Assembly: GCA_040905715.1 (NCBI GenBank)
Contig: JBBDRA010000003.1
Coordinates: 71,075-135,074, forward strand
Direction of reading: 5' to 3'
DNA: 64,000 bases
Source: Minisyncoccota bacterium
GTDB taxonomy: Bacteria > Patescibacteriota > Minisyncoccia > Phycocordibacterales > CSBR16-193
Of the stretch, positions 7,080-64,000 are shown piece after piece; positions within the stretch are counted from its first letter, which is position 1; the number at the start of each line of letters is the position of its first letter. Below the pieces are notes generated by a model. That model saw nothing but the letters and a program-made list of their open reading frames with translations, had not been told where the DNA came from and made no database searches. Made by a program: the position numbers and the translations under genes.

Positions 7080-8549
<1,470 letters not shown>

Positions 8550-8769
8550 ATTTTTCTGAGTTCGCCACCGGTGAACTCAGTGAAACGGTCGGTCCTGCAC
8601 CTCGATCGAGTGCAGGAAAAATCCTTCGTGGCGTATGTCATGAAGGGCAAAGGTTTTGGTCTCGGAGCCTCAAGTCGAGATCATGTGGACGGAACGAAAG
8701 AGAGAAGAATTGTCTAAGATCCTCATTGTTGACAATCAGCAATGGGGATTTTGTATTCAGCTTCTTCCC

Positions 8770-9434: not shown

Positions 9435-10040
9435 TTGATGCGATATACGATGCTGCTTCTTACGTTAGTTGTCACGACTATGGTTGCGACAACCGCTTTC
9501 GCAGACGAAACACCGGAGACGACGTTTCAGAAAGCGACGGCATTTGTGCTCGATTCTGAGGGTGGCTACAGCGATCATGTTGCAGACACCGGAGGTGCTA
9601 CCAACTATGGAGTTACTCAGGTCGCCTACGATTCCTGGCAAGATTCTTTGGATAAGAGGCGTCGACCGGTTTCCCAGATCGAGTTGTGGGAAGTCAAAGG
9701 CATTTATTATGCTTACTGGCTTGAGGCTCGTTGCTATGAGATCGAGGAGGTTTCTCCGGCGCTAGCGATCGCTCATTTTGACTGGGCGATCAATGCGGGG
9801 CCATCACAGGCGATGCGAACGCTTCAGCGGTGCATCGGGACCGAAGCTGACGGCATTTGGGGTCCGAAAACCCGTGCTGCATTTCTGAAAAGCGATCCGG
9901 CAGAGGTGCTCGAGGAGTATTTCGAGCGCCGCGAGCGGTTCTACCGGAGTCAGCCTGAAGAGCGACGCGACGCGTTTCTCTCTGGCTGGCTGAATAGACT
10001 CGATAAACTTCGAAATTTTCTATCAGATAGGGAAGAATAA
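9435..10040 (+). CDS. Secreted peptidoglycan hydrolase: GH108 lysozyme domain + PG_binding_3 domain
   Basis: It has a signal peptide (MMRYTMLLLTLVVTTMVATTAFA). The GH108 signature is 'EGGYSDHVADTGGATNYGVTQ'. The C-terminal 'GIWGPKTRAAF' fits a PG-binding-3 domain. Confidence 0.7.
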   Translation: MMRYTMLLLTLVVTTMVATTAFADETPETTFQKATAFVLDSEGGYSDHVADTGGATNYGVTQVAYDSWQDSLDKRRRPVSQIELWEVKGIYYAYWLEARCYEIEEVSPALAIAHFDWAINAGPSQAMRTLQRCIGTEADGIWGPKTRAAFLKSDPAEVLEEYFERRERFYRSQPEERRDAFLSGWLNRLDKLRNFLSDREE

Positions 10041-10207: not shown

Positions 10208-10229
10208 TGAGAATGAATCGACTCTCGAA

Positions 10230-10262
10230 GAACGTTTGCTCCGGCAAGCGTTCTTTTTTATT
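10230..10262 (+). terminator. Rho-independent terminator
   Basis: A 10-bp stem (gaacgtttgc / gcaagcgttc, one G-U pair) with a tccg loop is followed by TTTTTTTATTTTT. Confidence 0.7.
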
Positions 10263-10402
10263 TTTATTGCATTGATTATGACGGTTTCTTGTCTGAAAGA
10301 GGGATTTTTGGTAGTGTAGGCGGGTGTGAGGGTATTTCTATATGGCGTGTAAGTAAACTTGCTTTGCCGGCGCTCGGACGAAACGATAACTAGTTCTCGA
10401 TC

Positions 10403-10721
10403 GTTCCTCACTTGGCAAAGTAAGCAGAGCTTTCACACGCTTCACTCAGACGAAATGCCGCTTGGCGCTTGAATGCATTTGCCTTTCAGAAATTATTTGT
10501 GTGCAAGCACCCAAAATTTCTTCAATGCAAATGCGCTCACTATCGTGAGCAGCGCCTCGCTCCTCATTTGCGCGTGTAAGCAAAGCTTTCACGCGCGGCA
10601 CTCGCGAGTCATGCGAGAGCGAGCACAGCTCTCTTCAGCTTCACTCGGGTAACACTGTGAGCAAGCTCCCGTGTTACCCTCGCTTGCTGAAGATCTGGCT
10701 CTCGCACGACGTCGCTCACTT
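10403..10721 (+). repeat. Cluster of tRNA-5'-half-like repeats (CTCAYTTG-N6-TAAGCAAAGCTT) and palindromes upstream of tRNA-Ile
   Basis: Units start at about 10406 and 10562. Each mimics the tRNA leader 'gctcacttg' + acceptor 6-mer + 'TA' + a D-arm-like 'AGCaaAGCTt'. Several perfect hairpins lie between the units. Confidence 0.6.
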
Positions 10722-10797
10722 GCGCGTGTAGCTCAGCTGGTAGAGCATTCGACTGATACTCGAAAGGTCCCAGGTTCGATCCCTGGCACGCGCACCA
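10722..10797 (+). tRNA. tRNA-Ile (anticodon GAT), CCA encoded
   Basis: A manual cloverleaf fold gives acceptor GCGCGTG/CACGCGC, D-arm GCTCAGCTGGTAGAGC, anticodon loop CTGATAC and T-arm CCAGGTTCGATCCCTGG. The length is 76 nt. Confidence 0.9.
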
Positions 10798-10802
10798 TAA
10801 AA

Positions 10803-10838
10803 TAAATAACCGGCATTTTGTGCCGGTTATTTATTTTA
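10803..10838 (+). terminator. Bidirectional rho-independent terminator after tRNA-Ile
   Basis: The stem aataaccggca / tgccggttatt is flanked by A-rich sequence upstream and a T-rich tract downstream. Confidence 0.7.
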
Positions 10839-11065
10839 TAGACGACAGTCAGGGATCGAACCGTGAAGGGGACGGGAAACGGTAGTTTCCCGTGGAGGAA
10901 AATACTAAAAACCGAGAGGTTTTTAGAGCGCAGCGCAAGCGAGCAGTGAGTGTCCCTGGCACGCGCACAAGAATTCTCCCTAGGTTTAACCTAGGGAGAA
11001 TTTATTTGTATGAAAGTTCAAATTCTACACTGGATACAAAATACTGAATACACTATACTGTTTCT

Positions 11066-12028
11066 ATGATGATCGTATTCTGGACAATTGTTTTTATTGC
11101 CGCACTGATCGCGTTGGTCAAAGGGGCGGACTGGCTGATAGGCGGAGCCGAGCGTATCGGTCTTGCTGTCGGCATGTCTTCCTTTATTATCGGTGTGACG
11201 ATCGTTGCTATCGGAACATCGTTCCCGGAGCTTATTGCTTCAATCTCTGCCCTTATGAAGGGAGTGCCGGAAGTGATCGTCGCGAACGCTGTTGGTTCGA
11301 ATATTACAAATATTCTTTTGGTTATCGGTCTGTCTGCTCTTATAGGCCGTCAGCTTTCGGTTGAGAAGAATCTGATAGATCTTGATCTTCCGCTTTTAGC
11401 AGCGGGGACGGGAATCTTTCTAGTTGTTGCTTGGGATGGAACGATCAACCCTCTCGAGTCGATCGTCCTTGTCCTTAACTTCGCTGTGTATCTCGTTTAT
11501 ACGGTCACTCAACGAGACAGGACGGTGGTGCATTTACCGGAAGAAGAGATTTCCAAAGAAGAGCAAAAGCATCCGAAACGTTACATAAAAAAAGACATAG
11601 TGCTTATAATTTGTGGAGCAGCCAGTCTTGCTCTGGGTGCTCATTTTCTTATCGATTCGATCATTGTTTTCTCTACCCTTCTTGGGTACTCAACGGGATT
11701 GATCACTATCACTGCGGTGGCGTTGGGAACATCTCTGCCGGAACTTGCTGTTTCAGCTCGGGCGGTAATTCAAGGTAAAACGGAAGTAGCAGTAGGAAAT
11801 ATCTTTGGATCAAACGTTTTTAATATCCTCATGGTTGTCGGTGTTCCGGGTATTTTTAGTACGTTGCCGCTCGATGAGCAGACGCTCGCTGTCGGTGTCC
11901 CGGTTCTCGCATTGGCTACTTTCCTTTTTGTTATTTCAGGTATTTCACGATGCATTCATGCATGGGAGGGAAGCTTCTATCTTTCGCTGTACATACTCTT
12001 TCTCGCTAAAGTGTTCGGATTGTTTTAA
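11066..12028 (+). CDS. Ca2+/Na+ antiporter, CaCA family (YrbG-like)
   Basis: It has two internal alpha-repeats ('GTSFPELIASISALMKG' and 'GTSLPELAVSARAVIQG') and 10 TM helices. Confidence 0.7.
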   Translation: MMIVFWTIVFIAALIALVKGADWLIGGAERIGLAVGMSSFIIGVTIVAIGTSFPELIASISALMKGVPEVIVANAVGSNITNILLVIGLSALIGRQLSVEKNLIDLDLPLLAAGTGIFLVVAWDGTINPLESIVLVLNFAVYLVYTVTQRDRTVVHLPEEEISKEEQKHPKRYIKKDIVLIICGAASLALGAHFLIDSIIVFSTLLGYSTGLITITAVALGTSLPELAVSARAVIQGKTEVAVGNIFGSNVFNILMVVGVPGIFSTLPLDEQTLAVGVPVLALATFLFVISGISRCIHAWEGSFYLSLYILFLAKVFGLF

Positions 12029-12073
12029 GCAGTATATTGCTAATATGGCTAGAACATGGTATTGTATTTTCTT

Positions 12074-13492
12074 ATGCCATTTAGAAAAAAAACAAAAATT
12101 GTTGCAACGATAGGTCCGGTAAGTCAGGACGAAAAAACTCTCGAGAAATTAGCCAAGGCCGGAATGAATGTGGTGCGTTTAAATTTCTCTCACGGTGATT
12201 TTGAAGAACACCAGGGCAAGGTGGACGCAGCCCGTGCTGTCGAAAAAACGATCGGCCGACCGATCGCTATTCTCCAAGACCTCTCCGGTCCGAAGATCAG
12301 GATCGGAGATTTTTATAAAGAAAAGGTTGTACTCAAGAAGGGAAGCGAATTTACTCTTACAACTCAAAAGATCGTAGGCGATGAAACAAAGGCGCATGTG
12401 AACTATAAGTTGCTACCCAAGGAACTCGCTAAGGGTGACCAGGTATTACTTGATGATGGAAAAAAACGCCTCACCGTGGTTCGTACTACAAAAACAGATG
12501 TGGTCTGCAAGGTTGTCGTAGGCGGTGAAACAAAAGGTCGCCGTGGAGTTAATCTCCCGGGTGCAAATATTTCTATCGATGCTCTAACACCTAAAGACAA
12601 AAAAGATCTTGAATTCGGTATTACAAACGACGTTGATTTCATTGCGCTCTCATTTGTTCGTCGGCCGAAGGATGTGACAAAGCTCCGCACTATTCTCAAG
12701 AAGCGTGGTTCGGATGCGATGATCATCTCGAAGATCGAGACACAGGAAGCTATAACAAACATCGATGAGATCATTGAATTATCTGACGGTATCATGGTTG
12801 CCCGCGGTGACCTAGCTATCGAAGTGCCGGCTGAAAAAGTTCCGGAGTTGCAGAAAGAGATCATTGCTAAATGTAATCGTCTTGGTAAGCCGGTTATTAC
12901 CGCCACTCAGATGCTTGAGAGCATGATCCACTCACCGGTACCGACACGCGCTGAGGTGTCCGACGTTGCTAATGCTATTTTTGACGGTACCGACGCGGTT
13001 ATGCTCTCGGAGGAAACAACGCTTGGTGAATATCCGGTTGAGGCGGTCGAGACAATGGCCCGTGTTGCTCAAGAGGTGGAAAGTAATTATAAAGAGCGTT
13101 ATGCACTAAACGGAGGCGTGGAAATTAGTACGACTGATGCCGTAACTACATCGGTTGTAGAAACATCTCACGATATAGATGCCACTCTTATTGTTGCGGC
13201 TACGCTAAAAGGATTCAGTGCTCGCATGCTCTCACGGCACAAGCCGCTTCCGCTGATCCTCTCGCTTACACCAAACAAGAAAACCTGGCACCAGCTCCAG
13301 TTGTCGTTTGGTGTCTTTCCGGTTCTCACAAAAGAGTTAACGTCGGTTGAAGATGTTTTTGACGCGGTACGAGTTCAGGCACCTAAGTTCAAGTTAGCAA
13401 AGAAAGGCGACAAGGTTGTCGTGGTTGCTGGTGTGCCGTTCTCTTCCAAGTCACCTATGGAGACGAACATGATGCTGGTGGAAACGGTATAA
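12074..13492 (+). CDS. pyk: Pyruvate kinase
   Basis: The N-terminus 'KTKIVATIGP' is PK-like and 'MVARGDLAIE' is the PK active-site region. The ORF track starts at 12056, but the ATG at 12074 fits PK N-termini. Confidence 0.85.
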   Translation: MPFRKKTKIVATIGPVSQDEKTLEKLAKAGMNVVRLNFSHGDFEEHQGKVDAARAVEKTIGRPIAILQDLSGPKIRIGDFYKEKVVLKKGSEFTLTTQKIVGDETKAHVNYKLLPKELAKGDQVLLDDGKKRLTVVRTTKTDVVCKVVVGGETKGRRGVNLPGANISIDALTPKDKKDLEFGITNDVDFIALSFVRRPKDVTKLRTILKKRGSDAMIISKIETQEAITNIDEIIELSDGIMVARGDLAIEVPAEKVPELQKEIIAKCNRLGKPVITATQMLESMIHSPVPTRAEVSDVANAIFDGTDAVMLSEETTLGEYPVEAVETMARVAQEVESNYKERYALNGGVEISTTDAVTTSVVETSHDIDATLIVAATLKGFSARMLSRHKPLPLILSLTPNKKTWHQLQLSFGVFPVLTKELTSVEDVFDAVRVQAPKFKLAKKGDKVVVVAGVPFSSKSPMETNMMLVETV

Positions 13493-13529
13493 GAAATTTG
13501 GTACAGTTTTTCTGTCGCGAAGGGCACGT

Positions 13530-13828
13530 GGCGGAATTGGTAAGCAAAGCTTGCTCCGGCTGCGCTCAGGAAAAATAAAAGTAAACTTTTGTTTTCTCCT
13601 TCGCTTGTCGGAGTAAGCAAAGCTTCCTTGAACTGCGTTCAGACGGAACGAAAATAAATTTTCGACCGCTCCTCACTTGTTCAAGTAAGCAAAGCTTGCT
13701 CCGGCTGCGCTCGCGGATCATGCAAAAGCAAGCTTTTGCGCGATACCGCTCACTTGCCGGAGTAGACGCGTACCGCTTCTATATCTTTAAACATATATAG
13801 TTACAATAGTGTAGAGTAATATAGGTTC
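13530..13828 (+). repeat. Second cluster of tRNA-5'-half-like repeats (…TCACTTG-N6-TAAGCAAAGCTT…) upstream of tRNA-Leu
   Basis: It has at least three units carrying the same TAAGCAAAGCTT core as the 10.4-10.7 kb cluster. One unit copies the tRNA-Leu 5' segment 'ggcggaattggta'. Another carries 'tagacgcgtac', identical to tRNA-Leu positions 8-18. Confidence 0.6.
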
Positions 13829-13912
13829 GCCGTGGTGGCGGAATTGGTAGACGCGTACGCTTCAGGAGCGTATGTCCTTACGGACATGGAGGTTCAAATC
13901 CTCTCCACGGCA
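13829..13912 (+). tRNA. tRNA-Leu (anticodon CAG), long variable arm, CCA not encoded
   Basis: A manual fold gives acceptor GCCGTGG/CCACGGC, anticodon stem TACGC/GCGTA with loop TTCAGGA, variable arm TGTCCTTACGGACAT and a T-loop TTCAAAT. Confidence 0.85.
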
Positions 13913-13940
13913 CCGGTACAAAGAGACAGTGCGGCTTTAC

Positions 13941-20092: not shown

Positions 20093-22003
20093 ATGAGTAA
20101 TGAAGAGCGTGTAACGTACTTTGCGAAAACTGATTCACGCAATCGCCAAAAAACCTTCGGCATTAAAGCGAAGGACCGGAGCCGTCATGTCTATGTGATC
20201 GGAAAGACCGGCATGGGAAAGTCCACTCTGCTTGAGAACATGGCGATCCAGGACCTCCGCAATGGCGAGGGTATCGCTTTCATTGATCCGCACGGCAAGA
20301 CCGCTGATCTCTTGCTGGACTATGTACCGGAAGAGCGTCTCGATGATGTGGTATATTTTGCCCCGTTCGACATGGAGCATCCGCTCTCTTTCAACGTGAT
20401 GGAGGATGTCGGGGCTGATAAGCGCCACTTGGTAGCAAGTGGCTTGATGAGTAGTTTCAAAAAGATCTGGATAGACGCGTGGTCCGCACGAATGGAGTAC
20501 ATTTTAAATAACATTCTCTTAGCGCTTTTGGAGTACCCCGACTCAACCTTGATGGGAGTGAACCGAATGCTTGCTGATAAAGATTATCGAAAGAAGGTGG
20601 TAGAGAACGTCACTGACACCTCGGTCCGGGCGTTTTGGACCGATGAGTTTGCCAAGTACGGCGAGCGGTATATGCAGGAGGCCGGCGCCGCTATCCAGAA
20701 CAAGATCGGTCAGTTTATTTCCAATCCGGTCATTCGCAATATCATTGGTCAGCCACATTCCAGTTTTGATCTGCGTCGGATCATGGATGAGCGTAAGATC
20801 GTGATCATTAACCTCTCCAAGGGGCGAGTCGGCGAGACGAACGCCAACCTCTTGGGCGGTATGCTTATCACCAAAATGTATCTCTCTGCCATGTCGCGCG
20901 CCGACACTGACCCGGAGACCATGGAGAAGTTGCCGAACTTCTATCTTTTTGTGGATGAGTTCCAGTCCTTCGCCAACGAGTCCTTTGCCGACATTCTCTC
21001 CGAGGCACGTAAGTACAAGCTGAACCTCACCATGGCTCACCAGTATATCGAGCAGATGGATGAGACCGTGCGCGCCGCGGTCTTTGGCAACGTCGGTACT
21101 ATGATCACCTTCCGTGTGGGAGCATATGACGCTGAGTTCCTCGAGAAAGAATTCGAGCCGGTCTTTGATGCCAACGATCTGGTGAACCTCGGCTTTGCGC
21201 AGATCTATTTAAAGCTGATGATCGACGGTGTGTCCTCGCCGCCATTCTCAGCTATTACCTTGCCACCGTTAGAAGAAAAAGACACCTCGCACAGAAACGA
21301 GGTTATTGATGCGTCACGGGCGAACTATTCGAAGTCGCGCGAGGAGGTAGAAAAGTCTATTAACGAATGGCAAGGTATTCATGTGAAAGACTATGAAGAA
21401 TCACCGGCGGATAAGCAGCAGAAGAAGAAACCCAAAAGGGACCAGCAGAAGGATCAGCAGAAAGACCCGTCAAAAGCACAAGGTACCGACCGGCAGCGAG
21501 GGGAAGCAAGACCGCAATCACAACACTCCGGGCACAGCAACGGGGCTTCTCAAAAGCCGGCGGAAGGAAAGAGTAGCGATGAGTTGCGTGCCGCGCTTGC
21601 AGCTATCAGCAAGCAGGTAAGTCAAGGTCAGAAGACAGATCAGACGACCAATCAGAAGGAAAATAAATCTAAACAAGAGAATAGTGCTTCTCGATCGGAT
21701 CGGAAAAGACCACGAAAAGATACGTCCGGCACATCTCTCAAAGATGCGCTTAAAGAGCGAGGCCTGCTTGGTAGCAACGACTCAGCACCAAAGGAAAAAG
21801 AAGAAGTGAAAGAACAGCCGGACAAGAGCGAAAAAATGAACGAAAAGAAGAGCAAGGATGAAAGAGACAACAAAGAAAAAGATCAACAAGAGAGTATTCC
21901 GGAGGAAAAACCAAAAGAAAAGAAATTTCGAGAAGTCCCCCGAGAAGTCCTCGATGAGCTTCTTGGTGCTGACGAAGATGACCCAAAGAACGCAAAACGC
22001 TAA
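20093..22003 (+). CDS. VirD4/TraG/TraD-like (TrwB_AAD_bind-type) P-loop ATPase with a ~200-aa disordered K/E/D/Q-rich C-terminal tail
   Basis: It has Walker A 'IGKTGMGKST' and Walker B 'FYLFVDEFQSF'. Its overall architecture resembles type IV coupling proteins. The tail (residues ~440-636) is low-complexity. Confidence 0.45.
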   Translation: MSNEERVTYFAKTDSRNRQKTFGIKAKDRSRHVYVIGKTGMGKSTLLENMAIQDLRNGEGIAFIDPHGKTADLLLDYVPEERLDDVVYFAPFDMEHPLSFNVMEDVGADKRHLVASGLMSSFKKIWIDAWSARMEYILNNILLALLEYPDSTLMGVNRMLADKDYRKKVVENVTDTSVRAFWTDEFAKYGERYMQEAGAAIQNKIGQFISNPVIRNIIGQPHSSFDLRRIMDERKIVIINLSKGRVGETNANLLGGMLITKMYLSAMSRADTDPETMEKLPNFYLFVDEFQSFANESFADILSEARKYKLNLTMAHQYIEQMDETVRAAVFGNVGTMITFRVGAYDAEFLEKEFEPVFDANDLVNLGFAQIYLKLMIDGVSSPPFSAITLPPLEEKDTSHRNEVIDASRANYSKSREEVEKSINEWQGIHVKDYEESPADKQQKKKPKRDQQKDQQKDPSKAQGTDRQRGEARPQSQHSGHSNGASQKPAEGKSSDELRAALAAISKQVSQGQKTDQTTNQKENKSKQENSASRSDRKRPRKDTSGTSLKDALKERGLLGSNDSAPKEKEEVKEQPDKSEKMNEKKSKDERDNKEKDQQESIPEEKPKEKKFREVPREVLDELLGADEDDPKNAKR

Positions 22004-55923: not shown

Positions 55924-56402
55924 GAAGGTGATATGTTGGACGATCGCTGAGTTTTTTTTGCAAGAACTTAGAGGAAAGTCCGGACACTTATTTCTGTTCC
56001 GTCTTTGACGGATAACGGATCTAAAATGGTAGCGGCTCCGACGCTTCGGCATAGCCGAGGTGCGGAGCTCCGACTCCATCATATGATGGACGTCGGAGGT
56101 AACACCCGTCATCCGCCCCAGGCGGAAGAGGTGCGAGCAGTGACGCTCGATTCCGAAAGGATAGAGATTCCAGGAATGGAATAACCTTTATATAAGCTTG
56201 AGGTTTCCTTAAACGAAATTGAAGGGTGAAACGGCTAAATCCTTACCCAAGTGCAAGGCCGTACTCCAATGCTCTTGTAACAACAAGGTTTCATTGGTTT
56301 GTGCCGCACGAGCTGTCTGGTAACAGACAGCCCAGATAAATGATCGTCCAGGGCCCTCTTTTAGGGGTTCGGACAGAATCCGGCTTACAGACATATCGCT
56401 TC
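55924..56402 (+). ncRNA. rnpB: RNase P RNA (bacterial type A-like) with extra inserted helices
   Basis: Conserved P4 strands are GGAAAGTCCGGAC (5') and ACAGAATCCGGCTTA (3'). An AGGGTGAAACGG (P10/11-like) motif is present. P1 pairs GAAGGTGATATGT with ACATATCGCTTC, and a terminator follows. Confidence 0.75.
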
Positions 56403-56408
56403 AAAACA

Positions 56409-63523: not shown

Positions 63524-63596
63524 CTCCCCGTAGCTCAACTGGATAGAGCAGTCCCCTCCTAAGGGACCGATGTTGGTTCAAGTCCTGCCGGGGAGA
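63524..63596 (+). tRNA. tRNA-Arg (anticodon CCT), CCA not encoded
   Basis: The fold gives acceptor CTCCCCG/CGGGGAG, a D-arm GCTCAACTGGATAGAGC, an anticodon stem GTCCC/GGGAC with loop CTCCTAA and a T-loop TTCAAGT. Confidence 0.8.
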
Positions 63597-63645
63597 CAAG
63601 AGACAAAAGCAAATACAGCACCAGTTAGAAACTGATGCTGTATTA

Positions 63646-64000
63646 TTTTGGTGCCTGGGGGCGGACTCGGGGTCAGCTCACATCAATATTTTCGTGCGCT
63701 TCGCTTCGAAAATATTGTGTGCCCCCCCGGGGCTCGCCCGTCGTACTCGCTATCACTCCGTGCGACACGTCTCCGCCTTTCTCGTCCGCACAGAGGCGCA
63801 GCAGTGCGCCTTTTCTCCAGATACACAAAAACCGCCTCGCGGCGGCTTGTTTTGGTGCCTGGGGGCGGACAGAACATCTTGGAAACCCACGGTTTTCCAA
63901 CACTCCCTCCGGTCGCTGCCTTCCTCCACGGGGAGAAATACTTCTCCCCGACCCCCTCTTGGTTCGAGTCCGTCTACCACATAAAACAATACAGCACTAG
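63646..64000 (+). repeat. GC-rich tandem repeat (~204-bp period) whose copies begin with the identical 21-mer TTTTGGTGCCTGGGGGCGGAC; candidate structured ncRNA(s); runs off the window end
   Basis: The identical 21-mer sits at 63646-63666 and 63850-63870. Copy 1 holds an 11-bp hairpin (caatattttcg…cgaaaatattg), GGGG/CCCC long-range pairs and two terminator-like hairpins (63795-63816; 63832-63853). Confidence 0.45.

Follow-up and report, generated by a model that had tools for sequence, protein, structure and literature searches.

Two arrays upstream of tRNA genes

The window, a stretch of 64,000 nucleotides from a Minisyncoccota bacterium, contains intact genes for tRNA-Ile(GAT) and tRNA-Leu(CAG), upstream of which a short unit is repeated. 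In the following, X' and X denote two variable 7-mers of this unit, C-N5-C and G-N5-G respectively, which are complementary to each other. The features of the tRNA-Ile locus are:

10289..10317, + strand: putative promoter of the tRNA-Ile unit, TTGTCT-17 nt-TAGTGT with TG at -15/-14, inferred from the sequence
10344..10351, + strand: left flank, read as the displaced original tRNA-Ile 5' end, GGCGTG-TA (compare GCGCGTG-TA)
10352..10422, + strand: Ile copy 1, 71 nt, degenerate core AGTAAACTT, X' CTTTGCC, X GGCAAAG, terminal TA
10423..10578, + strand: Ile copy 2, 156 nt, core AGCAGAGCTT, X' CACACGC, X GCGCGTG
10579..10730, + strand: Ile copy 3, 152 nt, core AGCAAAGCTT, X' CACGCGC
10722..10797, + strand: intact tRNA-Ile(GAT), detected by ARAGORN and as an Rfam tRNA match of 74.6 bits

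Three copies, two of them with a further copy nested inside, are stacked between nucleotides 9 and 10 of the tRNA (10352-10730). The insertion point lies between A9 (10730) and G10 (10731), and nucleotides 1-9 of tRNA-Ile come from copy 3, the final 16 nt of which (CTCACTT-GCGCGTG-TA) are the leader plus nucleotides 1-9 of the working tRNA. Copy 1 is matched by a covariance model of the unit at 10342-10425 (52.4 bits, E = 1.2e-9). The nested copies are both degenerate; one sits in the distal hairpin of copy 2 (10476-10533, 22.8 bits with the same model) and the other in copy 3 (10622-10694; model match 10612-10696, 50.3 bits). An earlier reading of this DNA from its letters alone, hereafter the sequence-only reading, had listed units at both loci; those are real, but the list lacked copy 1 and the two nested copies. 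A palindrome which it described within the array was recovered at 10647-10655/10671-10679.

The putative promoter is situated 5' of the entire array, and TTGTYT-N17-TAGTGT also stands directly 5' of the element-free tRNA-Ile of a relative (L005). In the promoter consensus scan the putative promoter at 10289..10317 remained unscored. Further upstream, the preceding gene ends in a terminator-like hairpin (10227-10256). Downstream of the tRNA, its 3' end is duplicated at 10953-10973.

At the second locus the following features are found:

13528..13542, + strand: left half of a dead tRNA-Leu 5' fragment, GTGGCGGAATTGGTA, nucleotides 6-20 of tRNA-Leu, ending in the D-loop GGTA
13543..13615, + strand: Leu copy 1, 73 nt, X' CTCCGGC, X GTCGGAG; covariance-model match 13533-13618, 87.4 bits
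13616..13687, + strand: Leu copy 2, 72 nt, X' CTTGAAC, X GTTCAAG; member of alignment A1
13688..13764, + strand: Leu copy 3, 77 nt, X' CTCCGGC, X GCCGGAG; covariance-model match 13678-13767, 85.5 bits
13765..13779, + strand: right half of the dead tRNA-Leu fragment, GACGCGTAC-C-GCTTC, nucleotides 21 to about 36 with one extra C
13829..13914, + strand: intact, uninterrupted tRNA-Leu(CAG), detected by ARAGORN and Rfam

Leu copy 2 is matched only in part by the covariance model (13637-13677), because the neighbouring matches overlap it. The repeat search identified 13528-13542 as an exact 15-nt repeat of 13835-13849 and 13762-13773 as an exact copy of 13847-13858. The tRNA-Leu-like pieces pointed out before are thus genuine, but they are not separate units: they are the two halves of one dead 5' fragment (about nucleotides 6-36), which three elements (13543-13764) split in the D-loop, GGTA|GAC. 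The intact tRNA-Leu(CAG) has an AT-rich upstream region of its own (13780-13828), and the dead fragment with its elements lies upstream of this region. The 7-mers of the Leu-locus copies are unrelated to tRNA-Leu.

The repeats do not result from faulty assembly. Positions 10741-13588 of the window are matched at 100% identity by a Logan contig, the first 46 nt of Leu copy 1 are corroborated by independent assemblies, and Leu copy 3 is also present in GCA_040879545.1 and GCA_040881535.1. Two NCBI MAGs corroborate where the first element starts and where the second meets the third, each of them being broken or N-gapped inside the array. The motifs are also non-random. With at most one mismatch, TAAGCAAAGCTT occurs five times in the window (10421, 10577, 13541, 13614 and 13686, all on the + strand) as compared to 0.34 +/- 0.55 times in shuffled sequences. 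Likewise, CTYRYTTG-N5-GTAR was found five times, against 0.20 expected, and is confined to the two loci. The unit families were also recovered by the repeat search, and the covariance model finds no copy beyond the two loci in the 64 kb.

Structure and distribution of the element

On the tRNA-sense strand, the consensus of the unit is AGCAAAGCTT-N-X'(7 nt)-TGCGYTC-(hairpin with an apical sequence of approximately AAAGTAAACTTT)-CTCRCTT-X(7 nt)-TA. It is non-coding and about 75 nt long (typical range 72-77 nt), greater lengths being due to a nested second copy. At all copies the left border is GTA and the right border G/A. Since GTA is present at both borders, a duplication of 1-3 bp is indistinguishable from the element's own end. 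The fold comprises two hairpins. A small one, AAGC-AAA-GCTT, is formed by the core at one terminus, and the long one, which extends to the other terminus, consists of the X'/X helix, a 2-bp helix (G-C, Y-R) within two conserved internal loops, and a variable distal stem. Its termini are not inverted repeats of each other, the first 15 nt being unrelated to the reverse complement of the last 15 nt. Copies can be stacked in tandem at one GTA junction and nested within each other's distal loops, and their orientation is without exception that of the sense strand of the occupied tRNA-type sequence.

These boundaries modify the earlier description in one respect. What had been taken for a variable 6-mer at the place of the acceptor 5' strand is the 7-mer G-N5-G, complementary to the 7-mer that follows the preceding AGCAAAGCTT core. 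This 7-mer and the TA behind it belong to the element, and they equal nucleotides 1-9 of the tRNA only in copies directly abutting a working tRNA. The hairpin AGCAAAGCT does stand at the D-arm-equivalent position, after U8-A9, as had been noted.

The exact motif was detected at 49 metagenome loci in a motif scan, and the covariance model yielded 59 matches. The invariant motifs are common to 36 distinct canonical copies. Compensatory changes occur at 18 of the 24 base pairs; 91.5% of the cells are paired (72% in shuffles, 33-48% in slid controls), and double-change cells number 230 versus 71. Furthermore, Y5 of TGCGYTC covaries with R4 of CTCRCTT. Element-spacer types overlap between copies within one genome and copies at the same tRNA across genomes.

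When Rfam 15, whose families include self-cleaving ribozymes, group I/II introns and the T-box, was run on the window, only tRNA, 16S rRNA and RNase P RNA reached threshold. Permissive Rfam scans of both loci on both strands gave weak, chance-level matches, and Rfam analysis of 18 related loci returned rRNA and tRNA only. The relaxed motif had zero matches in viral contigs. A description of the element was not found in the literature searched for the core sequence and for tRNA, CPR, MITE, REP and leader topics. At the orthologous tRNA-Ile genes of three relatives (L002, L005 and L011) the element is absent. This comparison is a distant one: the nearest GTDB relatives, identified via pyruvate kinase, are at most 64% identical and element-free.

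Several lines of evidence bear on the strand that folds. On the sense strand, A.C/C.A mismatches outnumber G.T/T.G pairs by 45 to 15, as counted in related sequences from an alignment fitted to the model, and the invariant TC/TC loop reads as tandem GA/AG on the antisense strand. The antisense fold is the more stable one in 42 of 49 copies (p = 7e-7); with DNA parameters this applies to four of six copies, one being a tie and one reversed. GC skew is positive on the + strand across the whole window, which makes the + strand the leading strand, and therefore the better-folding antisense strand would be the leading-strand template, as far as such indirect inferences from one window go.

Target sites and competing explanations

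Twenty-four distinct copies abut real tRNAs at the 9|10 position, namely those for Asp, Ala, Met, Ile, Thr, Arg and Gly, all of them co-oriented. In these 24 copies X equals the acceptor 5' strand, and nearly every copy abutting a real tRNA is flanked on the left by a copy of tRNA nucleotides 1-9. Other sites are the D- or anticodon loops of partial tRNA copies, pseudo-5S copies and a single intergenic position upstream of a trxB-like ORF. In pseudo-5S as well as pseudo-tRNA-Gln, -Trp, -Thr and -Ile(TAT) sequences the element interrupts the gene copy at GTA|G, and the intact gene is found next to it. In two loci (L092 and L084) an empty paralogous site lies beside a filled one, and two loci with near-identical flanks (L097 and L103) carry one and three copies, respectively. 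These empty and filled sites and the copy-number polymorphism show the element to be an insertion, although the polymorphism could partly stem from deletion between direct repeats of 9-16 nt. Insertion and mobility are read here from sequence comparison, not from an observed transposition event. The association of the units with tRNAs that the sequence-only reading had seen holds up, and so does its suggestion that they reflect repeated insertion at tRNA genes.

The target must comprise more than GTAG, of which an estimated several hundred occur per 64 kb with two loci occupied; in the tRNA-Arg gene at 63524, G7-U8-A9-G10 is present and the site is empty. Two possible rules of targeting were rejected. 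A 9-bp target duplication of X-TA agrees with the tRNA sites but not with pseudo sites, where the left flank mismatches X-TA beyond GTA. A guide role of X' towards the left flank is consistent only with sites at which this flank derives from the same tRNA; in stacks and pseudo sites, X' and the flank are not complementary.

Taken together, we regard it as fairly probable that the repeats are copies of one small, conserved, structured non-coding insertion element, with a lower degree of confidence for its inferred mobility. According to this explanation, the last copy of a stack, where it abuts nucleotide 10 of a live tRNA, supplies the leader and nucleotides 1-9 by means of CTCACTT-X-TA. The tRNA gene stays intact, because both are supplied and X is the acceptor 5' strand, and the original nucleotides 1-9 remain upstream as a scar. 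The entire stack would presumably be transcribed as a long 5' leader, to be removed by RNase P at CTCACTT|G. Copies with an unrelated X persist only in harmless places, namely dead tRNA or 5S partials, upstream stack positions and intergenic DNA. More tentatively, the element itself would be non-autonomous and would move, or have moved formerly, as folded single-stranded DNA through a structure-specific enzyme encoded in trans.

The most serious alternative is a functional leader RNA read from the sense strand. In such an RNA, X' would act as an anti-acceptor that sequesters the acceptor 5' strand, and the upstream copy of nucleotides 1-9 would act as an anti-anti-acceptor that frees it; the purpose could be the timing or regulation of folding and RNase P processing, or the titration of RNase P. 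The position between promoter and tRNA, within the inferred transcription unit, agrees with this, as do the strongly covarying structure, the complementarity of X' to tRNA nucleotides 1-7 in 24 distinct cases together with the nearly always retained left copy of nucleotides 1-9, and the leader end U(-1), which is unpaired with the 3' CCA and, judged from the sequence and from what is known of RNase P, suits this enzyme. However, the same element is found in dead tRNA and 5S fragments and at the intergenic site, with no tRNA downstream. Upstream copies decay within the stacks, and even a tRNA-proximal copy may have a degenerate X' (L103). The element is missing from the relatives' orthologous tRNA-Ile and from two of the four tRNAs of the window: CTCACTT, which is no general tRNA leader, is lacking at tRNA-Gly (63414) and tRNA-Arg (63524). 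Rfam gave no match on either strand. On the sense strand there are three A.C mismatches for every G.U pair, and in the invariant internal loop pyrimidines face pyrimidines. As this mismatch asymmetry favours antisense folding, a leader RNA acting from the sense strand is unlikely, and the promoter, processing and RNase P titration ideas voiced earlier are disfavoured along with it. A promoter within the element was also considered and dropped; the consensus scan was negative, and TGCGYTC and the apical TAAACT-like motif stand anywhere from 14 to more than 100 nt apart, which makes an internal promoter unlikely.

Considerably less probable is an RNA-level, intron-like parasite that would use reverse splicing or ligation to enter exposed GUA sites of abundant stable RNAs (tRNA nucleotides 8-9, D- and anticodon loops, 5S rRNA) and then be copied into DNA, the partial copies arising by recombination beside the parent gene. 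All targets except one are indeed tRNA or 5S sequences, entered in sense orientation throughout and at positions left single-stranded when the RNA folds. Partial gene copies beside the intact gene are frequent carriers, and exact splicing at the boundaries would restore the tRNA from its flanks. Yet about 75 nt is far below the size of group I/II introns, ribozyme families are unmatched, a bulge-helix-bulge could not be drawn at the junctions by inspection, a reverse transcriptase is absent from the window, one copy is intergenic and hence outside RNA genes, and the mismatch asymmetry indicates the antisense strand. Moreover, the partial tRNA copies stop at the anticodon loop or T-loop, where integrases classically cross over, so that ordinary integrative elements explain them.

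The repeats could also be the sites of a structure-specific, site-specific recombinase of the integron attC or Xer type, with the hairpin as folded-strand substrate and the stacks as cassette-like arrays. The outline resembles attC: a single strand folds into a hairpin with a paired box of 7 bp, a conserved spacer left unpaired, another stem and, at its end, a variable structure that accounts for the length variation. One strand is preferred for folding, and the arrays are tandem, as with attC. Against this, the R''/R' cores (RYYYAAC/GTTRRRY) are absent, copies abut each other without cassette cargo, there is no integrase in the window, and the pattern of conservation is the reverse of that in attC, the 7-bp box being variable and the spacer conserved. 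We hold this reading to be very improbable.

Finally, the proposal of the sequence-only reading that the units are serial, decayed duplications of local tRNA 5' halves, left behind as scars when larger elements integrated or were excised, a dedicated element playing no part, would account for tRNA nucleotides 1-9 in the Ile-locus units, the real tRNA-Leu pieces and the duplicated tRNA-Ile 3' end (10953-10973), but it has hardly any probability left, since AGCAAAGCTT, TGCGYTC, CTCRCTT and the apical loop are non-tRNA sequences that recur identically beside unrelated tRNAs, pseudo-5S copies and an intergenic site at 49 metagenome loci, the Leu-locus 7-mers are unrelated to tRNA-Leu, and the helices covary.

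Known mobile elements and possible significance

The insertion element that we prefer as an explanation shares features with several known systems. IS200/IS605 elements and their non-autonomous derivatives, the PATEs, transpose as single-stranded DNA with the aid of a Y1 HUH transposase. Like these, the element has no terminal inverted repeats and carries hairpins at both ends. It also lies strand- and orientation-specifically beside a short fixed sequence; a target duplication is not clear, as the GTA at both borders could reflect one of 1-3 bp or the element's own end. IS608 has TTAC as its target and often inserts into rrn genes that are highly transcribed (PMC5027513). On its antisense strand the element described here stands 3' of YTAC and itself ends in TTAC. 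In IS608, cleavage sites are recognised by base pairing with the element's DNA (PMC3201880, PMC5934647). The IS608 hairpins lie 10-19 nt inside the ends; here they abut the ends, one of them spanning nearly the whole element. Unlike in IS200/IS605, the 7-bp foot helix is variable and follows the host tRNA, the 5' end of an invaded gene is restored by the element, and no transposase was found within the 64-kb window or near the 49 loci. The strand rule of IS608, by which the active strand is on the lagging-strand template, does not hold in this one window, where the favoured strand is the - strand and the + strand is the lagging-strand template.

An enzyme was sought in several ways. Pfam analysis of 50 ORFs in the 64-kb window revealed no transposase, integrase, reverse transcriptase or HUH protein, and phmmer searches with IS608 and IS200 TnpA sequences found nothing among the ORFs of about 340 kb of loci. 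Clusters of ORFs near the elements were housekeeping families only, as judged by inspection of their sequences, and no enzyme was seen near elements in the 49 loci, a weak negative in view of the roughly 0.5% of each genome that these cover. Mobility as folded single-stranded DNA by an enzyme acting in trans is put forward as a tentative idea, the best analogue being the HUH/Y1 transposases of IS200/IS605 elements or of the REP-RAYT system.

REPs are 20-40 nt long, with GTAG directly 5' of a hairpin of conserved sequence, and exist in hundreds of scattered intergenic copies in both orientations. REP, BIME and REPIN sequences associated with RAYTs resemble the element as short non-coding palindromes tied to GTAG, which here arises at the 3' junction only, and as sequences clustered in tandem, REPs being clustered in inverted arrangement as well. 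In contrast, the element is about 75 nt long, occupies two loci in 64 kb, lies in tRNA and 5S sequences in tRNA-sense orientation and has a variable stem; the 20-40-nt palindrome, the 5' GTAG and the many copies dispersed in both orientations that characterise REPs and REPINs are not what we observe. REP elements presumably move with the help of an HUH enzyme supplied in trans (PMC6006769).

Classical MITEs, such as Correia/CREE, RUP and IS630-derived ones with TA duplication, are similarly small, non-autonomous, structured and multi-copy, with TA, or GTA in our case, repeated at both borders. They differ in that the element lacks terminal inverted repeats and a fixed-length target-site duplication, the hallmarks of DDE-derived MITEs, is inserted orientation-specifically and has its conserved motifs in internal loops instead of at its ends. 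MITE copies can nest and be co-transcribed with adjacent genes (review PMC3184786).

As in tRNA-targeting integrative elements, a replacement tRNA segment is carried along and the displaced original is kept as a flanking direct repeat. Such elements are kilobase-sized, encode an integrase and usually replace the 3' part of the tRNA from the anticodon loop or T-loop. The displaced segment is supplied in 24 distinct cases here, by an element of about 75 nt that has no coding capacity and no integrase nearby, replaces the leader and nucleotides 1-9 and also enters unrelated GTA sites. Disrupted tRNA genes of archaea and algae likewise contain foreign sequence at non-canonical positions including the D-loop, and in permuted tRNA genes a 3'-strand-like segment precedes a 5'-strand segment, as it does here (PMC3978253). 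However, the present host is bacterial, no bulge-helix-bulge was found, the interrupted copies are truncated pseudogenes beside an intact gene, and splicing is needless at nucleotides 9|10.

The best reading of these comparisons is that the element is new, that is a small non-autonomous mobile element for which we found neither an Rfam family nor a counterpart in the literature, possibly moving as single-stranded DNA. A less probable reading is that it represents a previously unrecognised class of very small single-stranded DNA mobile elements in ultra-small bacteria of the CPR/Patescibacteria type, defined by structure, specialised for the GUA(G) positions that tRNA and 5S genes universally conserve, and with a helix re-specified for each host tRNA. 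If true, bacteria would harbour a distinct miniature mobile element that occupies essential tRNA genes at nucleotides 9|10 and repairs them with a leader and acceptor strand of its own. It would do so with some 75 non-coding bases, as a mirror image of the 3'-end restoration by integrases. Such an element would be defined by structure rather than by stem sequence, and re-specifying the 7-bp helix would allow it to inhabit essential tRNA genes harmlessly. The covarying 7-bp helix that tracks the tRNA would imply that base pairing templates either the choice of target or a homogenisation after insertion, a point of relevance to programmable DNA insertion; should X' help to select the site, the element would be a natural transposon that finds its target by pairing over 7-9 nt. 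In practical terms, the stacks give rise to pseudo-tRNA fragments and to leaders some 400 nt long, which annotation pipelines are liable to miss or misread, and in three assemblies they break short-read assembly at tRNA loci.

Repeat units at the tRNA-Ile and tRNA-Leu loci

The repeated motif family that the sequence-only reading had placed upstream of tRNA-Ile and tRNA-Leu was confirmed by motif counts in the 64-kb window. The core TAAGCAAAGCTT occurs five times at up to one mismatch, always on the forward strand, versus 0.34 times in shuffled sequences. The leader plus 7-mer (CTYRYTTG-N5-GTAR) was found five times versus 0.20 expected, and only at these two loci. A repeat search of the window recovered the unit families, two exact copies of tRNA-Leu sequence (15 and 12 nt) and the palindromes.

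Features at the two loci (window coordinates)
10352-10422, 10423-10578, 10579-10730: three tandem units, Ile locus
10421, 10577, 13541, 13614, 13686 (+): core TAAGCAAAGCTT, up to one mismatch, window motif scan
10476-10533 and 10612-10696: nested degenerate copies, covariance-model search of the window
10722-10797: tRNA-Ile(GAT), ARAGORN and Rfam
10797-10839: perfect 19-bp hairpin directly 3' of tRNA-Ile
10850-10862: inverted copy of the tRNA T-arm (reverse complement of 10773-10785)
10953-10973: direct copy of the tRNA-Ile 3' end (compare 10780-10800)
13543-13615, 13616-13687, 13688-13764: three units, Leu locus
13829-13914: tRNA-Leu(CAG), ARAGORN and Rfam

While the repeats are real, the unit boundaries originally drawn had to be re-parsed. 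At both loci the 7-mer in front of each TA-AGCAAAGCTT pairs with the one that follows the previous core, not with the one that follows the same core, and therefore belongs with the previous core. The unit thus reads AGCAAAGCTT-N-X'(7)-TGCGYTC-[hairpin]-CTCRCTT-X(7)-TA, where the variable 7-mers X' and X are complementary, with GTA before each unit and G or A after it.

At the Ile locus, the end of the last unit (CTCACTT-GCGCGTG-TA) provides the leader and nucleotides 1-9 of the working tRNA-Ile, and GGCGTG-TA (10344-10351) to the left of the stack is a slightly damaged copy of the original nucleotides 1-9. Farther left lies a promoter-like TTGTCT-N17-TAGTGT, a match to which sits directly before the element-free tRNA-Ile of L005, a locus of a GTDB relative. 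At the Leu locus, the units are inserted between GTGGCGGAATTGGTA (tRNA-Leu nucleotides 6-20) and GACGCGTAC-C-GCTTC (nucleotides 21 to about 36), as identified by the repeat search. They thus split, in its D-loop (GGTA|GAC), a dead and truncated piece of tRNA-Leu that lies upstream of an AT-rich region and the intact tRNA-Leu.

The repeats recur in independent assemblies and are genuine sequence; an assembly artefact is ruled out. Across 10741-13588 the window agrees base for base with a Logan contig assembled from SRR27977661, and two NCBI MAGs of the same species bear out the Leu array's first and last elements. In three independent short-read assemblies (the 10741-13588 contig, L131 = GCA_040879545.1 and L132 = GCA_040881535.1, both NCBI MAGs), a 100-N gap or contig end falls exactly at the tRNA-Ile/tRNA-Leu arrays, as true repeats would lead one to expect. 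The elements are thus a practical source of contig breaks in genomes of this species.

Distribution and structure of the element family

The element is a widespread family that is not confined to the window. Scanning metagenome contigs for GTAAGCAAAGCTT-N8-TGCGYTC, which has about 19.5 specified bases and for which we roughly estimate a handful of chance matches, gave 49 loci; a scan of viral contigs with a relaxed motif gave zero matches. Nearly every metagenome locus shows the same order of X', a hairpin with a AAAGTAAACTTT-like tip, CTCRCTT, a 7-mer complementary to X', and TA. Across 30 aligned distinct copies, GTAAGCAAAGCTT, C..C, TGCG.TC, C.C.TTG and GTA are invariant. The fold predicted from this alignment (RNAalifold) has a core hairpin of 4 bp, an X'/X helix of 7 bp, a further helix of 2 bp within the conserved loops and a distal stem; 18 of its 24 pairs show compensatory changes. 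Covariation is especially clear where TGCG-T-TC pairs with CTC-A-CTT and TGCG-C-TC with CTC-G-CTT, and a neighbouring double change is also present in two copies.

A covariance model built from the 30 copies and searched with filters off found copies in the window at the Ile and Leu loci only, including degenerate nested ones, and 59 copies in the metagenome loci. The model found none in the ten closest GTDB pyruvate-kinase loci. The source organism is of Patescibacteria type, and the pyruvate kinases closest to that of the window come from MAGs of Paceibacteria and Parcubacteria and are at most 64% identical. Among 49 distinct sequences, 91.5% of cells are paired, versus 72% in column shuffles and 33-48% with slid partners, and double-change cells number 230 versus 71; this alignment was fitted to the model, which flatters the pairing figures, and the MAFFT-based result of 18 out of 24 agrees. 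No Rfam family matches the element on either strand, and the literature searched contained no description of its motif or of such an element.

Insertion and the state of the target tRNA

Several independent lines of evidence show that the element is an insertion. At the tRNA-Leu of the window, the gene sequence runs exactly on across the element, with the intact gene adjoining, and further interrupted genes were found at metagenome loci.

Interrupted genes at metagenome loci
L100, L086: tRNA-Gln, intact gene alongside
L122: tRNA-Trp, six tandem copies, intact gene alongside
L102: tRNA-Thr, intact gene alongside
L127: tRNA-Ile(TAT), intact gene alongside
L096: 3' partial tRNA-Thr, split in the anticodon loop at TGTA|A, intact gene alongside
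L085, L087: truncated 5S copies after the real 5S, split near the 3' end at GAGTA|GG

Two loci (L092, L084) each carry a larger repeat twice, as paralogues: one is uninterrupted (...GGTCATGTA|ATGACC...), and the other has one or two elements at exactly this point. L097 and L103 share near-identical flanks and a tRNA-Ile(GAT), with one element in the former versus three of different subtypes in the latter. At L098/L109 a copy lies in intergenic DNA before a thioredoxin-reductase-like ORF. The sequence-only reading had also suggested comparing related genomes for presence or absence of the units; in the relatives retrieved (L002, L005 and L011), the tRNA-Ile orthologue carries no element. The target is GTA|R, the orientation is fixed and terminal inverted repeats are absent; copies stack and nest, and share a conserved structure with variable stems and no coding capacity.

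In 24 distinct copies, all oriented like the tRNA, the last base of the element is exactly nucleotide 9 of a tRNA called by ARAGORN (Asp 8, Ala 4, Met 4, Ile 3, Thr 2, Arg 2, Gly 1). Here X is the acceptor 5' strand, X' is complementary to it, and the left flank holds a second, often slightly damaged copy of nucleotides 1-9. The tRNA gene is thus left intact, with a new CTCRCTT leader that ends in U(-1); the element-abutted tRNA-Ile of the window scores 74.6 bits in Rfam. An upstream promoter would transcribe the whole stack as a long leader, about 410 nt at tRNA-Ile, which RNase P could then remove; an RNase P RNA is encoded in the window (Rfam).

In upstream stack, pseudo-gene and intergenic copies, X and X' are unrelated to their own flanks. 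Since some of these stray pairs equal acceptor strands of tRNAs found elsewhere, such as GCCGAAG, the X of the L102 pseudo-tRNA-Thr, which recurs as acceptor strand in the tRNA-Thr(CGT) of L112, the junction between tRNA nucleotides 9 and 10 is suggested to be the home site and other locations strays.

The match of X and X' to the host tRNA possibly arises because copies survive selection only where they re-insert or undergo homologous exchange at one and the same tRNA. It is also possible that site preference is guided and off-target insertions are tolerated, or that template switching homogenises the two arms of the hairpin once the element is in place, in a direction fixed by selection on the tRNA. 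Spacer types overlap between elements of one genome and elements at the same tRNA in different genomes, and thus do not tell these possibilities apart. A 9-bp target duplication accounts for the tRNA sites and fails at pseudo sites, where the left flank equals the parent gene and X is mismatched; X'-guided targeting fails at the same sites.

Folding strand, possible mode of movement and other features

Paired columns read on the sense strand, i.e. that of the tRNA-type sequence occupied, contain 45 A.C/C.A mismatches versus 15 G.T/T.G, with the same trend in every helix. The invariant 2x2 internal loop sets TC opposite TC on this strand and forms tandem GA/AG, a stable and common motif, on the antisense strand. 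Under RNA parameters, 42 of the 49 copies fold better as the antisense strand (mean -27.2 vs -23.2 kcal/mol, p = 7e-7). With DNA parameters, the intact copies of L089 and L087 favour it by 3.4 kcal/mol each, and among four window copies it is slightly favoured in two, tied in one and disfavoured in one. Together, mismatch asymmetry, loop and predicted folding energies speak against a sense-strand RNA structure and argue for one formed by the antisense strand, the simplest form being single-stranded DNA. The promoter or processing element originally considered is accordingly disfavoured.

The element is probably a dedicated insertion element, and we class it as a small mobile element of the non-autonomous kind whose target healing and host tracking are unusual. 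It resembles MITEs, REPs and PATEs in being small, structured, non-autonomous and multi-copy, and tRNA-targeting integrative elements in restoring the gene entered. It fails the defining tests of REP, classical MITE, attC and known introns alike.

In its target, fixed orientation, ends, stacking and structure, the element is most like IS200/IS605 with PATEs and REP with RAYT, which HUH enzymes move as single-stranded DNA, and it might move in the same way. On the antisense strand YTAC stands 5' of the element, whose own end is ...GCTTAC; the insertion point of IS608 is 3' of TTAC (PMC5027513), and its cleavage sites are recognised through base pairing with element DNA (PMC3201880, PMC5934647). 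However, no HUH protein, integrase, recombinase or reverse transcriptase was found in the window or beside elements at other loci, and the hairpin geometry of IS608 is unlike that of the element. GC skew is positive on the forward strand across the whole window (0.06-0.15), including the minus-strand gene block at 27-33 kb, and thus the entire window lies on one replichore with the forward strand leading. The better-folding strand is then the leading-strand template, the opposite of the IS608 rule. HUH-like transposition is therefore considered possible but less likely than not.

Further insertion-like sequences were noted. The features at 10797-10975 bound a hairpin-rich segment of about 90 nt and resemble what is left of another, different small element that had integrated at the 3' end of the tRNA. 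A second mini-insertion family occupies T-loops or follows the 3' ends of partial tRNA/5S copies.

Second mini-insertion family
L100: 10620-10735 (-)
L087: ~730-860
L127: 4660-4770
L092: 400-520
L084, L130: also present

Its layout is '...cagtctgggagactg...agaaggttg...caacctGTAC-tg[hairpin with GGTA/TGTAA loop]', and this terminal hairpin loop is itself a target of the main ~75-nt element. The pseudo-tRNA of L127 holds a third, different insertion in its anticodon loop. Just downstream of tRNA-Arg(CCT), at the window edge, 'ttttggtgcctgggggcggac' occurs twice, 205 nt apart (63645-63665 and 63850-63870), as the reverse complement of a tRNA 3' end (...GTCCGCCCCCAGGCACCA), near a tRNA-3'-end-like 'ggttcgagtccgtctaccaca' at ~63960-63982; these could be further partial tRNA copies or att-like scars.

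A gap of about 2.1 kb separates the 16S rRNA gene (7091-8553) from tRNA-Ile(GAT) and contains small ORFs and a lysozyme-like ORF (9435-10040) with GH108 and PG_binding_3 domains; with no 23S gene in the window, the rRNA operon is unlinked or interrupted. The ORF at 20093-22003, among cell-wall/glycosylation genes, has weak type IV secretion coupling-protein, TraG/TrwB and HerA ATPase matches; no other gene seen in the window resembles conjugation or DNA-transfer genes. The RNase P RNA (55928-56403) scores 100.5 against an Rfam threshold of 100 bits and is 476 nt long where the model has 367 positions, pointing to sizeable insertions in its gene.
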